Origin: Nitrospinaceae bacterium
GTDB lineage: Bacteria; Nitrospinota; Nitrospinia; Nitrospinales; Nitrospinaceae
DNA length: 64,000 nucleotides
Reading direction: 5' to 3'
Assembly (NCBI GenBank): GCA_965223665.1
Contig: OZ245011.1
Coordinates: 1,312,001-1,376,000, forward strand
Shown: positions 45,927 through 49,448 of the stretch, piece by piece
Position numbering within the stretch: the first letter of the stretch is position 1
Layout: each line of letters opens with the position of its first letter
Made by a program: the position numbers and the translations under genes
Notes under the pieces: model-generated
What the model was told of the DNA's origin: nothing
Database searches by the model: none
What the model saw: the letters and a program-made list of their open reading frames with translations, nothing else

Positions 45927-46160
45927 ATGCACTCAAAAATGCAAAATGCAATTATGGAAATTTTGGGGAATGTTAATTATCGAGAAAATTTAGCTGAAGA
46001 CCCAGGCAAAATTCAAAAAGATTTTGATTTAAATGAAAAGGAATTCCAGGCTTTAAACTCGAAAGTAAGCATAGGCCCAAGAGTTGTAACTGACCATGAA
46101 GTCAGCTCTTGTGTTTGTATTTGTTGCACTGCATCAGTAATTCAATTAGCAACAAAATAA
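45927..46160 (+). CDS. RiPP precursor peptide (NHLP-clan-like leader, Cys/Ser/Thr-rich core)
   Basis: G6 RBS; leader YRENLAEDP...FDLNEKEFQAL; all four Cys lie in SSCVCICCTAS; first gene of a YcaO operon. Confidence 0.85.
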   Translation: MHSKMQNAIMEILGNVNYRENLAEDPGKIQKDFDLNEKEFQALNSKVSIGPRVVTDHEVSSCVCICCTASVIQLATK

Positions 46161-46195
46161 ATTCATAGGTATGGATATTTTGGGGGGCATTTCAA

Positions 46196-47227
46196 ATGGA
46201 GAGGAGTTTAACCTCTTTAACAGTTGAATATGCAAATACCTCCCTGCCAAAGAATCCATTTCTGGCTCCTTGGCTTCATTGCATTGATTTTGGTGATGGG
46301 CGATTACAATTTCGTGGATCACAGTTCTCTTTCACACTATCTCATCCTCTATTTGTAAACACCTTCTTAAAAATTCGTGATCTGCTAAATGGTGACCATC
46401 AAATTGAGGAAATAGCTTCTTCTGGAGGAGAAGCTATTCTCCCGACTACTATAATTTTTGTTCTCAAAATATTGCGAGCTAATGGTATTCTTCATGAGTT
46501 CCATCCATTTTTTACTTCCTTCAACAATTTAGAAAAACGCCGAGCCGTTTTTCTCTCCCAGGTTTTACAAGACCCTGGGCATTCCATTGAAGTATTTTCT
46601 CAATCTCGAATTGGGCTGATTGGAGATTCTTCTCTTATTGATGAAGTCCGAGAATCTTTAGGCTCGATAGGAATAAATGAAATTTTCCTCCCAAGTTTTG
46701 AGTCTCTGAAAAAAACAGTAGAGACAGAGAAATTAGATTTTTTAATTGTTTGCAAAGAATCTCCCAGCTTCTCTTTTTATGAAAAAATAAATTCAAAATG
46801 CCTTGATTTGGGTATCCGCTGGATGCATGTAACCATGGATGGAACTTCAGCATTAATTGGTCCTACAATTGTTCCCTTTCAAACCGCGTGCTATAAATGT
46901 TTCACTACGCGCATTGAATTTTTGGTGCCTGATTTGGAAGGCTATGTTGCCTTCAAAAAGGAGCAAAATCAAACATCGAGAGATAACGGATATTTCTCTG
47001 CTTTAGGAAAGACTGTAGGTAGTCAAGTCGCTATGGAAATAGCCCGTATTTATTTAGGTTTTTCGCCTCCTAAAACATTTGGGCGCTATTATCAGTTTAA
47101 TATCAATGATATGGAGTCAGTTGGGCATTCGATTCTTCGTTTTCCAAGATGCTCCGCTTGCTATAACAAAAAATCTCCTTTGGACATTTGGGATTCCAGC
47201 ATTTCCGCCCAATGGACAAATATTTAG
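46196..47227 (+). CDS. TOMM leader-binding E1/ThiF-like cyclodehydratase partner with N-terminal RRE-like region
   Basis: IGPTIVPFQTACYKC and HSILRFPRCSAC zinc motifs; LLNGDHQIEEI winged-helix-like N-terminus. Confidence 0.88.
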   Translation: MERSLTSLTVEYANTSLPKNPFLAPWLHCIDFGDGRLQFRGSQFSFTLSHPLFVNTFLKIRDLLNGDHQIEEIASSGGEAILPTTIIFVLKILRANGILHEFHPFFTSFNNLEKRRAVFLSQVLQDPGHSIEVFSQSRIGLIGDSSLIDEVRESLGSIGINEIFLPSFESLKKTVETEKLDFLIVCKESPSFSFYEKINSKCLDLGIRWMHVTMDGTSALIGPTIVPFQTACYKCFTTRIEFLVPDLEGYVAFKKEQNQTSRDNGYFSALGKTVGSQVAMEIARIYLGFSPPKTFGRYYQFNINDMESVGHSILRFPRCSACYNKKSPLDIWDSSISAQWTNI

Positions 47228-47239
47228 TTTTAAGGAGAA

Positions 47240-48613
47240 TTGACTTTGCCATGCTCGAATCTTTCATTACGAAAGTTAAAAAAAAGTCCTGAAGTTCCTC
47301 TAGAAGAGTGCCTGGAAAGAGCTAAGAGATTAGTAAGCGATAAAGTTGGAATTATCTCCAAAGCAGAAATATTGAGTCTTCCCCCAGGAGAACCGGCGGT
47401 GTTTCATGCTAGAACAGTTCCTGCTGACATCTCAAGTGCCACTGGATACAAGACCATGAATTTTGGATCGGCTATTTCTACCAACGAAGATATAGCTATC
47501 ATAAAAGCGGTAGGGGAAAGTGTTGAACGCTATTGCTCGTCGTTTATTGATGAAAATAATTTGGTCCGAGCCACGCAAAAAGAATTAAAGGGTAAAAGTA
47601 TTGACCTTGAGAAATGGGTCCTTTTTAGTGAAAAACAATATGCACAACCTAATTTCAAATACCCTAAAATTAATTCAGATACCTCTCTCTATTGGACGCA
47701 AGGTTTTTCCATTTCGCAAGATTACCCAATATGGATTCCAGCTTCACTAGTTTATATGCCCTATTTATACCGTAAAGACGAACCAATTTTTCACAATCAA
47801 ATTTCGACCGGATTAGCCTGTGGCGTCAATTTAGCCTCTGCTATTTATAGAGGTATCCTAGAAGTAGTGGAAAGAGACGCTTTCATGATTGTCTGGCACA
47901 ATCGGCTCAATTGTCCTTCTCTTGATACATCAAACATAGAGGATTCCTATGTGCGATCTTTACTTGATGTATTAGACCAAGCCCCAGTTGAATACTATAT
48001 AAAAGTCTTAACCTTAGATATTGAAGTAACCACGTTACTAGTTCTTGTCTCGAATAAAAATGGATGTCCTCCCCATACCGTCATAGGCATGGCAGTAGAC
48101 TTGGACCCTTTAAAAGCCTTAGGAAGAGCCTTGGAAGAAGGGATTTTAGTTTATTTGGGATTAACCAGGTACCAGCGAGAAAATCCCGTTTACGAAAGAG
48201 ACCCAGAGTACAAACAAGTGGTCACACCCGCAAAACACGGCATCATTCACGCCATGGAACCAGAACTATTGGAAACAGTACAATTCTTGAAAGAAAACCG
48301 AAATATTATGACCCTTAAAGATTTGCCGAACTATCACAATGTCGATCCCGTAGATGCTTGCAAACTGATTGTGGAACTTTTACAAAAAAAAGATTTGGAA
48401 ACACATGTTGCAGACTTAACCACTGTGGATATTGATGACGTTGGCTTTAAAGTCATAAGGGCTATCATTCCAGGAATGCAGCCTTTGGACCTGGATCATG
48501 CTTATCCCTATTTAGGAGGAAAACGTATTTATGAGGTTCCCTTTAAGTTGGGACTCACTCCAAAACCTTTAAAGGAGAATGAGGTTAATCGCGATCCTCA
48601 TCCCTTTCCATAA
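47240..48613 (+). CDS. YcaO cyclodehydratase (azoline-forming type)
   Basis: KAVGESVERY, STGLACG, EVVERDA ATP-binding motifs; C-terminal PHPFP; AAGGAG RBS (TTG at 47246 may be the true start). Confidence 0.95.
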   Translation: MTLPCSNLSLRKLKKSPEVPLEECLERAKRLVSDKVGIISKAEILSLPPGEPAVFHARTVPADISSATGYKTMNFGSAISTNEDIAIIKAVGESVERYCSSFIDENNLVRATQKELKGKSIDLEKWVLFSEKQYAQPNFKYPKINSDTSLYWTQGFSISQDYPIWIPASLVYMPYLYRKDEPIFHNQISTGLACGVNLASAIYRGILEVVERDAFMIVWHNRLNCPSLDTSNIEDSYVRSLLDVLDQAPVEYYIKVLTLDIEVTTLLVLVSNKNGCPPHTVIGMAVDLDPLKALGRALEEGILVYLGLTRYQRENPVYERDPEYKQVVTPAKHGIIHAMEPELLETVQFLKENRNIMTLKDLPNYHNVDPVDACKLIVELLQKKDLETHVADLTTVDIDDVGFKVIRAIIPGMQPLDLDHAYPYLGGKRIYEVPFKLGLTPKPLKENEVNRDPHPFP

Positions 48614-48629
48614 ATTGCAAGGAGGCATC

Positions 48630-49448
48630 ATGGGTAAAATTGTTCAAGATCACCTTCATTTGAATAGTCAAAGGCAGACCCAAGATTATTCGATTAGCGA
48701 AATATATAACGAGAATTCCAAATTACACCCCTCCACAATTCACGCGGTCCTGCCAGCCACAGAATATTCTAAAGAAGAATTGCAAGCCATGATTAAGGGC
48801 TATAAGCAGTACCCTCACGCAAAGAAAATTAAACTCCTAACCCCCAAGCAAGATAGAAAAACATTTTGGGAAGTGATTGAATCCAGAAGATCCATTAAAA
48901 CTTTTGGAGATGAAGCATTGAACTTTGAACAGCTTTCTATAATTCTTTGGCAAAGTTATGGAACTACGGGGGAGATAGATGAACCAGGAGTGGGAAAACG
49001 GCTAAAAAGAGTGGTTCCTTCAGCCGGAGGTCTCTATCCGGGGGAAATTTATCTGGGAGTCCGAAATGTTTCAGGGTTAGACCCAGGAGTTTATCATTAC
49101 AATGTACCTAATCACGAATTAGAGTTGCTCTCCTCAGGAGATCCGACCCAAAGTTTGCATAAAATTTGCTGCCAACAAGATTTTGCCCAAGAAGCTGGAG
49201 TTGTAATAATGATGTCAGCAGTTCTAGAGAGAACAAAGAGAAAATATGGAGAACGAGGATATCGATATGTATTGCTTGATCTGGGTCATCTTGGACAAAA
49301 TATTTATTTGTCATGTACAGCACAACAGTTAGCTGTGGTAACCACCTGCGGATTTTATGATGATTTAGGAAATGATTTTCTCAAACTTGATGGGTTAAAT
49401 GAGTCCCTGATGTATATAGCCTTTATAGGAAAAAATAAGGAACTCTAA
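48630..49448 (+). CDS. SagB/ThcOx-family FMN azoline dehydrogenase
   Basis: RRSIK, PSAGGLYP, GVYHY, KYGERGYRY (Lys-Tyr motif), GHLGQN; GGAGG RBS before ATG 48630. Confidence 0.93.
   Translation: MGKIVQDHLHLNSQRQTQDYSISEIYNENSKLHPSTIHAVLPATEYSKEELQAMIKGYKQYPHAKKIKLLTPKQDRKTFWEVIESRRSIKTFGDEALNFEQLSIILWQSYGTTGEIDEPGVGKRLKRVVPSAGGLYPGEIYLGVRNVSGLDPGVYHYNVPNHELELLSSGDPTQSLHKICCQQDFAQEAGVVIMMSAVLERTKRKYGERGYRYVLLDLGHLGQNIYLSCTAQQLAVVTTCGFYDDLGNDFLKLDGLNESLMYIAFIGKNKEL

Follow-up and report, generated by a model that had tools for sequence, protein, structure and literature searches.

A predicted azole-peptide gene cluster of Nitrospinota adjoins a conserved TonB-dependent receptor and sensor kinase cassette

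The locus described here lies in a stretch of 64,000 nucleotides from a Nitrospinaceae bacterium (contig OZ245011.1, positions 1,312,001 to 1,376,000), in the following referred to as the window. The genome comprises 4.35 Mb and is 98.6% complete; its nearest public relative is a metagenome-assembled genome (MAG) labelled Nitrospinaceae. At positions 45927-49448 the window holds four co-oriented open reading frames (ORFs) in the order A-C-D-B, separated by gaps of only 35, 12 and 16 nt. A first-pass annotation had read them as a tightly spaced cluster for a ribosomally synthesised and post-translationally modified peptide (RiPP) of the linear azole-containing peptide (LAP) kind, with a 77-aa peptide, an E1/ThiF-like protein with two CxxC motifs, a YcaO protein ending in PHPFP and a SagB-type dehydrogenase with a Lys-Tyr pair. 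All four ORFs are present, and their family scores agree with these assignments. The conserved receptor and sensor genes next to the cluster were overlooked at that time; we rate them as the more interesting part of the locus. The coordinates of all features are collected in Table 1.

Table 1. Features of the azole-peptide locus and its neighbourhood (positions in the window)
Feature	Position	Strand	Domains and remarks
XRE-type helix-turn-helix regulator	40193..40576	+	Pfam HTH_19, HTH_3; module edge
Response regulator	40615..41658	-	receiver + PAS (Pfam); C-terminal CxxC...CxxC
Inner-membrane sensor histidine kinase	41579..43087	-	Pfam CHASE8, HAMP, HisKA_2, HATPase
YfiR-like periplasmic protein (DUF4154)	43084..43665	-	PF13689, 4.4e-30
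TonB-dependent receptor	43690..45768	-	plug + barrel (Pfam Plug, TonB_dep_Rec_b-barrel); divergent from precursor gene
Divergent intergenic region, receptor gene / precursor gene	45769..45926		~263 nt if receptor begins at internal Met
A, precursor peptide, 77 aa	45927..46160	+	leader residues 1-~58, Cys-cluster core CVCICCTAS, short tail
C protein, 343 aa	46196..47227	+	N-terminal winged-helix (RRE-like) head + E1/ThiF-like domain, two CxxC
D protein, 457 aa	47240..48613	+	stand-alone SagD-type YcaO cyclodehydratase; TIGR03604, Pfam YcaO
B protein	48630..49448	+	SagB-type FMN dehydrogenase; TIGR03605; listed ORF from 48579 overlaps D

The three putative modifying enzymes are recognised by family models, among NCBIfam only by the generic ones for SagB, SagC and SagD. 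Protein D scored 294.9 bits against TIGR03604 (E 7.6e-88, cut-off 219.25) and matched Pfam YcaO with E 3.6e-61; its start is either TTG at 47240 or ATG at 47251. It ends in RDPHPFP, the final residues being nearly invariant in the 13 aligned orthologues (13/13), and among solved structures in the PDB it comes closest to the azoline-forming cyanobactin heterocyclases TruD and LynD (E about 2e-30). Protein C exceeded the cut-offs of TIGR03882, the leader-binding model of the thiazole/oxazole-modified microcins (TOMMs; 53.5 bits, E 3.1e-14, cut-off 36.9), and of Pfam ThiF (32.2 bits, E 8e-08, cut-off 28.1), and reached only 53.1 bits with the full-length SagC model TIGR03603 (cut-off 187.65). Residues 49-100 of C resemble the winged-helix family PF21084 below its cut-off (E 0.0075), the CxxC cysteines C232, C235, C319 and C322 are invariant in 16/16 aligned orthologues, and weak matches to LynD (1.2e-05), TruD and MccB were found in the PDB. 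Protein B matched TIGR03605 with 149.4 bits (E 6.9e-44, cut-off 78.4) and, in the PDB, 3eo7 and the azoline oxidases CyaGox (1.9e-13) and McbC (7.9e-07). It probably starts at ATG 48630, which lies behind an AGGAGG, and its orthologues match the listed ORF from residues 15-18 onwards. The stretch RKYGERGYRY of B contains the Lys-Tyr pair, which we take to be a functional motif.

The profile searches that the first-pass annotation had proposed as a check were thus positive for Pfam YcaO, TIGR03882 and TIGR03605, with both TIGR models above their cut-offs. Its statement that TfuA is missing could be extended to the 98.6%-complete genome, in which no match to PF07812 was found while a control genome gave a positive match. 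The components that define LAP/TOMM clusters are a SagD-type YcaO with a Pro-rich end, an E1-like partner, a SagB dehydrogenase and an adjacent conserved precursor. They are present above curated cut-offs and TfuA was not found, so that the linear azole peptide favoured earlier is retained here. Judged from the sequences, the gene set very probably encodes azole-forming LAP/TOMM biosynthesis.

The precursor gene A follows a strong ribosome-binding site (GGGGGG, 6 nt 5' of the start), and the peptide, which ends in ...SSCVCICCTASVIQLATK, matches no Pfam family in a Pfam profile search. Its conservation was followed in a set of 41 related genomes from 14 genera, of which 16 genomes from 7 genera hold an orthologue of the YcaO. 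In every one of the 16 YcaO-positive genomes a precursor profile (E <= 0.001) matched exactly once, and in the 25 YcaO-negative ones it did not match at all, which chance is far from explaining. Including the window, 15 loci fetched first and 8 from a phylum-wide search, 24 Nitrospinota loci could be compared. In all of them the precursor lies 5' of the C gene, once frameshifted (L025) and once with a divergent leader (L034); the conservation beside orthologous YcaOs on which the first-pass annotation had made its reading depend was hence found throughout. The order C-D-B is retained in all 15 first-fetched loci; in 14 of them an ORF of 60-80 aa whose C-terminus bears a Cys cluster lies upstream of C, and the 8 further loci all have the precursor, one per locus in a profile scan of small frames. 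At L025 (6346-6531, + strand, genome G002) the precursor frame ends in a single Cys and another frame reads the Cys cluster, followed by a stop, which points to an apparent frameshift or an assembly error; the rest of that locus is intact.

What the precursors share in the alignment is a conserved leader of ~55 residues, followed by a conserved core that is very short. It consists in most genera of Arg-Pro-x-Ala-x, then CCTC, CCCC or CCCCC, then 0-15 variable residues, and the Nitrospinota precursors have 3-5 adjacent Cys/Thr in it. A second core type with an interrupted Cys cluster occurs in the window, its congener G001, G070 and the contig L060. When 1.84 billion representative proteins were searched with the precursor profile, 67 clusters were found at E <= 0.001 and 27 at E <= 1e-10. 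Most of the 60 clusters inspected end in runs such as CCCC, CCCCC, CCCCCCP or CHCCC, with up to 7 adjacent Cys in relatives from other phyla. MAGs with the labels Pseudonocardiales, Beijerinckiaceae, Alphaproteobacteria and Nitrospirae hold YcaO relatives of 39-51% identity together with such precursors; in a Gaiellaceae MAG a close YcaO is present and the contig ends before the precursor site. The locus search was based on the YcaO alignment, the alignment of the poly-Cys precursors having no conserved stretch.

When the leaders of 15 members were compared with the models of the NHLP clan, 8 matched NF038399 (best E 3.2e-6), 5 TIGR04509 and 4 TIGR03793, all below the cut-offs; the window peptide itself reached 16.1 bits with NF038399 (E 0.009, cut-off 40). 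With such scores the precursor is not a member of a curated NHLP family, and its leader is, by sequence likeness, a distant relative of the NHLP clan. The Protein Atlas gave leads below 0.9 only, to lantibiotic precursors and the Nif11 family. The small ORF is, as its pattern of conservation indicates, a real and conserved precursor, and the family to which it belongs is sizeable, albeit uncatalogued. Of the novelty claimed at first, one part stands, as we found no match to a characterised LAP; the precursor is however no orphan, given at least 67 clusters and the distant likeness to NHLP leaders.

A model of the complex of C with A obtained a score of 0.63, and the best of 3 controls 0.28. 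For comparison, 58 of 80 solved complexes and 2 of 110 mismatched pairs attain this mark. The runs share at least 66% of their contacts, the pLDDT of the partner is at least 65, and the contacts connect leader residues 2-14 and 38-54 with C residues 6-14, 39-53 and 80-98, i. e. with the winged-helix head. Since leader-heterocyclase complexes of the LynD type are already solved, the good score of C and A may partly reflect likeness to them. The model supports binding of the leader by the winged-helix head of C.

Biosynthesis would accordingly begin with the binding of the N-terminal leader helix of the precursor to the winged-helix head of the E1-like protein C. In an ATP-dependent cyclodehydration, the YcaO protein D would then convert the clustered Cys, probably along with neighbouring Thr/Ser, to azolines, which the FMN dehydrogenase B would oxidise to azoles. 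The leader would be removed by a protease encoded outside the module, and the product would be a short peptide with three to five thiazole/oxazole rings close together, which would presumably be exported. In the genome, C39 peptidase domains gave three weak matches in frames of 139-314 aa, none of them near the cluster. A GT2 glycosyltransferase, an inositol monophosphatase, MnmA and RsmD, which are encoded downstream of B, were considered as further parts of the module and rejected because they are conserved within the genus only; the same lack of conservation applies to an MFS transporter that one genus carries 3 kb downstream.

On its other side the precursor gene is flanked by a divergently oriented cassette of a TonB-dependent receptor, a YfiR-like protein and a sensor histidine kinase with a CHASE8 domain. 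Their best NCBIfam models are NF053590 (TOL_0244 family; 555.3 bits, cut-off 645), NF053591 (83.9 bits, cut-off 125) and NF053592 ('sensor histidine kinase, YfiR-like protein-associated'; 172.1 bits, cut-off 194). The receptor adjoins the RiPP genes in 24/24 Nitrospinota loci (15/15, 8/8 and the window); for the YfiR-like protein as well as for the sensor head the count is 22/24 (13/15, 8/8 and the window) within the stretches fetched. At G034 the YfiR-like protein and the sensor are located farther upstream, behind two extra copies of the receptor, and at L034 the cassette lies downstream of B and is still linked. The sensor head of the kinase is conserved across loci and its output part is variable. 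The genes beyond B differ between genera, in contrast to the receptor side, which is conserved.

The regulators at the outer edge of the cassette are less constant. Full-length matches to the response regulator were found in L016, L029, L031 and L060 only and partial ones in L017 and L026; the XRE regulator stands beside the module in 5/16 loci and also in L060. After its PAS domain the response regulator has a zinc-ribbon-like CxxC tail instead of a recognised DNA-binding domain. The intergenic region between receptor and precursor contains a promoter-like site at 45831-45858 (+) (TTGGCA-16-TAGAAT, 10/12 matches). A scan of 45600-49700 for promoters and terminators found no more of them than in shuffled sequence, and this site is thus a consensus match only.

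The association of receptor and RiPP genes also holds on the level of whole genomes. Receptor matches of at least 645 bits (48-88% identity) are present in 16/16 YcaO-positive genomes and in 1/25 YcaO-negative ones (G028), and all other receptor matches in the 41 genomes have at most 465 bits. In a quick tree of 32 receptors, the receptors with and without adjacent RiPP genes do not separate into one clade each (5 changes of this label, with 37 of 500 shuffles as low). The reason is that the non-adjacent copies L093-L097 arose by recent, lineage-specific duplication and fall among the adjacent ones. The window-type receptors (window, G001, G070 and L060) form a clade with support 99 that spans two families. 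This pattern matches the YcaO identities of 76, 71 and 59%, which indicates that the module was inherited or transferred as one unit.

L060 is a contig binned into a Gammaproteobacteria MAG. It holds two XRE genes, the response regulator, the kinase, the YfiR-like protein, the receptor, A, C and D, with 48-59% identity to the window (only 37% for the short precursor A), and is thereby closer to it than most Nitrospinota loci. It is either a mis-binned contig or a case of horizontal transfer.

The window contains a second cassette at 58421-62966 (-), composed of a receptor (60942-62966), a YfiR-like protein (60341-60925) and a hybrid histidine kinase (58421-60334). Its best models are also NF053590, NF053591 and NF053592, no RiPP genes stand beside it, and in the tree its receptor is placed on a long branch outside the RiPP-linked group. 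Another observation was made at one of the non-adjacent receptor copies. Directly upstream of the paralogous receptor of the RiPP-linked group at L093 (genome G040, contig 2) an ORF of 75 aa (7008-7235, +) has weak similarity to the profile of the precursor leader (small sets, E 4e-4 and 4e-3), contains no Cys and ends in an aromatic, Gly-rich tail; by Pfam no modifying enzyme is encoded nearby. It may be a different peptide partner for this receptor type. Two copies appear to be damaged, the RiPP-adjacent receptor at L020 (4117-6219, genome G031), which has an in-frame TGA in the plug, and the YcaO at L030 (8161-9512, genome G011), which is read in two frames. Selenocysteine at the TGA was rejected because relatives have Q or L at this position. 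Both genes may be decaying copies or the result of sequencing errors.

We lean towards the view, as the best explanation overall, that the LAP/TOMM cluster is one half of a conserved two-part module and that its peptide is sensed or recaptured by the cassette. Some functional connection between the peptide and the three proteins of the cassette (receptor, YfiR-like protein, CHASE8 kinase) is likely in view of their conserved linkage. The conserved coupling further suggests that the product or its metal complex is bound at the outer membrane. The more specific proposal that the azole peptide is itself the ligand of the cassette is tentative, and we place it somewhat short of an even chance; the peptide could then be a recaptured metallophore or a self-made signal, to which we give equal weight. 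In either case the exported peptide, free or loaded with metal, would be bound by the receptor at the outer membrane, and the binding event would be relayed by the YfiR-like protein to the CHASE8 kinase. This relay would parallel the YfiBNR system, in which the CHASE8-type sensor YfiN is repressed by YfiR, as described in PMC4655355. Nothing about the chemistry departs from the standard, and so far the tie to the receptor is a genetic one only.

Several observations weigh against a coupling of peptide and cassette. The conserved module contains no exporter, leader protease, immunity gene, TonB-ExbBD or periplasmic binding protein, and export and uptake thus have to be assumed. Fully oxidised thiazoles are weak metal ligands. 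A Fur box or sigma-54 site common to the loci was not seen when the 150 nt 5' of 23 precursors were inspected by eye; a Fur-like half-site upstream of the precursor occurs at a single locus (L017). Although the gene order is that of the NF053590-NF053592 trio, all three cassette proteins remain below the curated cut-offs. Paralogous receptors of the RiPP-linked group stand without adjacent RiPP genes at L094, L095, L096 and L097. Finally, no such receptor is present in the available flanks of the Pseudonocardiales, Beijerinckiaceae and Alphaproteobacteria MAG relatives, and the receptor link is lineage-specific. The neighbours in these other phyla have no common theme; an S8 peptidase with an FAD monooxygenase, a PhyH dioxygenase with an FGE-sulfatase-like protein and an adenylate cyclase-AAA protein were found.

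Instead of being its ligand, the peptide could be an antimicrobial or membrane-active LAP and the cassette only a regulatory input that senses an unrelated cue from outside, for example a hydrophobic compound or the product of a competitor. Such a role would agree with the wide occurrence of this cassette type, mostly with no RiPP genes nearby, with the second cassette of the window, which does without them, and with what is known of the TOL_0244 receptor, which was up sevenfold on n-C28, a long-chain alkane, and has been compared with the alkane sensor OmpS (PMC6304351). It would also agree with the contiguous heterocyclisable residues, which are the active part of streptolysin S-like cytolysins according to PMC4513790. 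Yet neither immunity nor export genes belong to the module, and the receptor subgroup co-occurs with the RiPP genes (in all YcaO-positive genomes but only one of the negative ones) and, from one family to another, travels together with them. Such behaviour is unnecessary for a generic input, albeit compatible with one. On balance we consider this explanation unlikely, if deserving of serious weight. Less probable still is that shared descent alone has kept cassette and LAP genes together, without any bearing on function. In favour of it, the 24 loci are all from a single order and hence related, not independent, and the missing receptor in the visible flanks of the relatives from other phyla would fit as well. 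Mere descent does not account easily for the difference between the two sides of the cluster, of which only the receptor side is kept between genera, nor for L034, where the linkage survived a relocation of the cassette to the other end, nor for a window-type module that is common to two families and the Gammaproteobacteria-binned contig.

A last alternative concerns the chemistry, namely that the YcaO installs thioamides, or that the azolines remain unoxidised, instead of azoles being formed. D has a secondary match to the YcaO of McrA thioamidation (TIGR03266, E 8.6e-31), which lies far below the cut-off of 365 bits, and azolines would be the better metal ligands. An E1-like partner and a SagB dehydrogenase are however conserved in all loci, which speaks against this alternative, as do the lack of a TfuA match in the genome and the conserved Pro-rich C-terminus of D. 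We regard this possibility as very improbable. The coupling of an azole peptide to the receptor cassette remains the reading that we prefer.

The operon logic of such a coupling is familiar from other peptides. In methanobactin operons and in proteobacterial lasso-peptide clusters, precursor and enzymes likewise stand beside a dedicated TonB-dependent receptor and a trans-envelope signaling pair, a layout that fits secretion, recapture and sensing. In these systems, the chemistry is that of an oxazolone-thioamide or a lasso fold in contrast to the azoles predicted here, and signaling is of the FecI/FecR type and not by a YfiR-like protein and a CHASE8 kinase. To our knowledge, a conserved link to a receptor/YfiR-like/CHASE8 cassette is not a feature of any characterised LAP. 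The cassette of TOL_0244, TOL_0243 and 'HK near YfiR-like', a relative of YfiBNR, provides the best models for the three neighbours and has the same gene order. In contrast to that cassette, the proteins described here fall short of the cut-offs and form a subgroup that is tied to a RiPP cluster.

With regard to the biosynthetic half, the closest resemblance is divided among three groups. The cyanobactin heterocyclases TruD and LynD and the microcin B17 synthetase are the closest solved structures for D, C and B, and winged-helix leader binding, ATP-dependent azoline formation and FMN oxidation, which are predicted here from sequence, are the chemistry shared with them. The cyanobactin enzymes are fusions of the E1-like and YcaO parts, which are separate genes here; moreover, a macrocyclase or protease as in cyanobactin systems is lacking, and the precursor is unrelated to the PatE type. 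NHLP-type TOMMs, which are defined bioinformatically, likewise have a long helical leader (~55 aa), a Cys-rich core and enzymes of the SagB/C/D type. Their precursors typically have a Gly-Gly site and are accompanied by a peptidase-containing ABC exporter. Here, in contrast, the alignment contains no conserved Gly-Gly motif, the module contains no such exporter, and the core is very short and located at the C-terminus. NHLP is the name of a clade in the D-protein tree of the TOMMs, as given in PMC4513790. The streptolysin S-like cytolysins (sagA-I) also combine the SagB/C/D trio with a run of adjacent Cys/Thr/Ser as the core. According to the same paper (PMC4513790), the first five residues of the SagA core are all Cys, and the family is defined by 9-10 heterocyclisable residues in a row. 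With only 3-5 contiguous residues, and an interrupted pattern in the window, the present cluster is not a streptolysin S-like one. In addition, its leader is long and NHLP-like and not short, the flanks did not reveal a SagE-type protease or a SagGHI transporter, and the host belongs to a Gram-negative marine chemolithoautotroph lineage.

The literature search gave a similar picture. Beyond the proteomics observation on TOL_0244, no experimental study of the cassette was found. No paper was found that joins Nitrospina and YcaO, nor a described natural product from Nitrospinota; nothing was found that joins YcaO, TonB-dependent and metallophore, and polythiazole together with YcaO appeared only in unrelated work. 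Among the papers on LAPs, cysteine-rich and NHLP peptides within a coverage that leaves out most subscription journals, none, judged by title and abstract, describes this precursor family. We thus found no characterised counterpart of the cluster, the biosynthetic half of which is, to judge by its genes, of the LAP/TOMM kind.

Of 120 genomes and 30 genera of the phylum, 22 and 10, respectively, have the YcaO; they all belong to the four families of one order, and none was found in 18 genomes of the other five Nitrospinota families. Inside genera the distribution is patchy, for example 5/11 in the genus g2, and many such genomes are incomplete. An orthologous locus is held by the isolate Nitrospina sp. 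32_T5. A second, distant YcaO-like match (27% identity) was noticed outside the window on contig 1 of genome G000 (1966507-1967499), in an open frame of 755 aa. It has a counterpart in G001 and G004 and may be a fused YcaO of another type.

If the azole peptide is indeed the ligand of the cassette, Nitrospinales would make a ribosomal poly-azole metallophore or autoinducer, and its peptide would be the first ligand for a widespread and experimentally unstudied class of trans-envelope sensors. The cassette has curated models without a known signal. A subgroup of it that is genetically locked to a four-gene pathway provides an expressible candidate ligand, and by this the question of the signal becomes testable. 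In the ocean, nitrite is oxidised mainly by Nitrospinota, and a small poly-azole peptide that is conserved in this proportion of the genomes of the phylum likely matters to their ecology.

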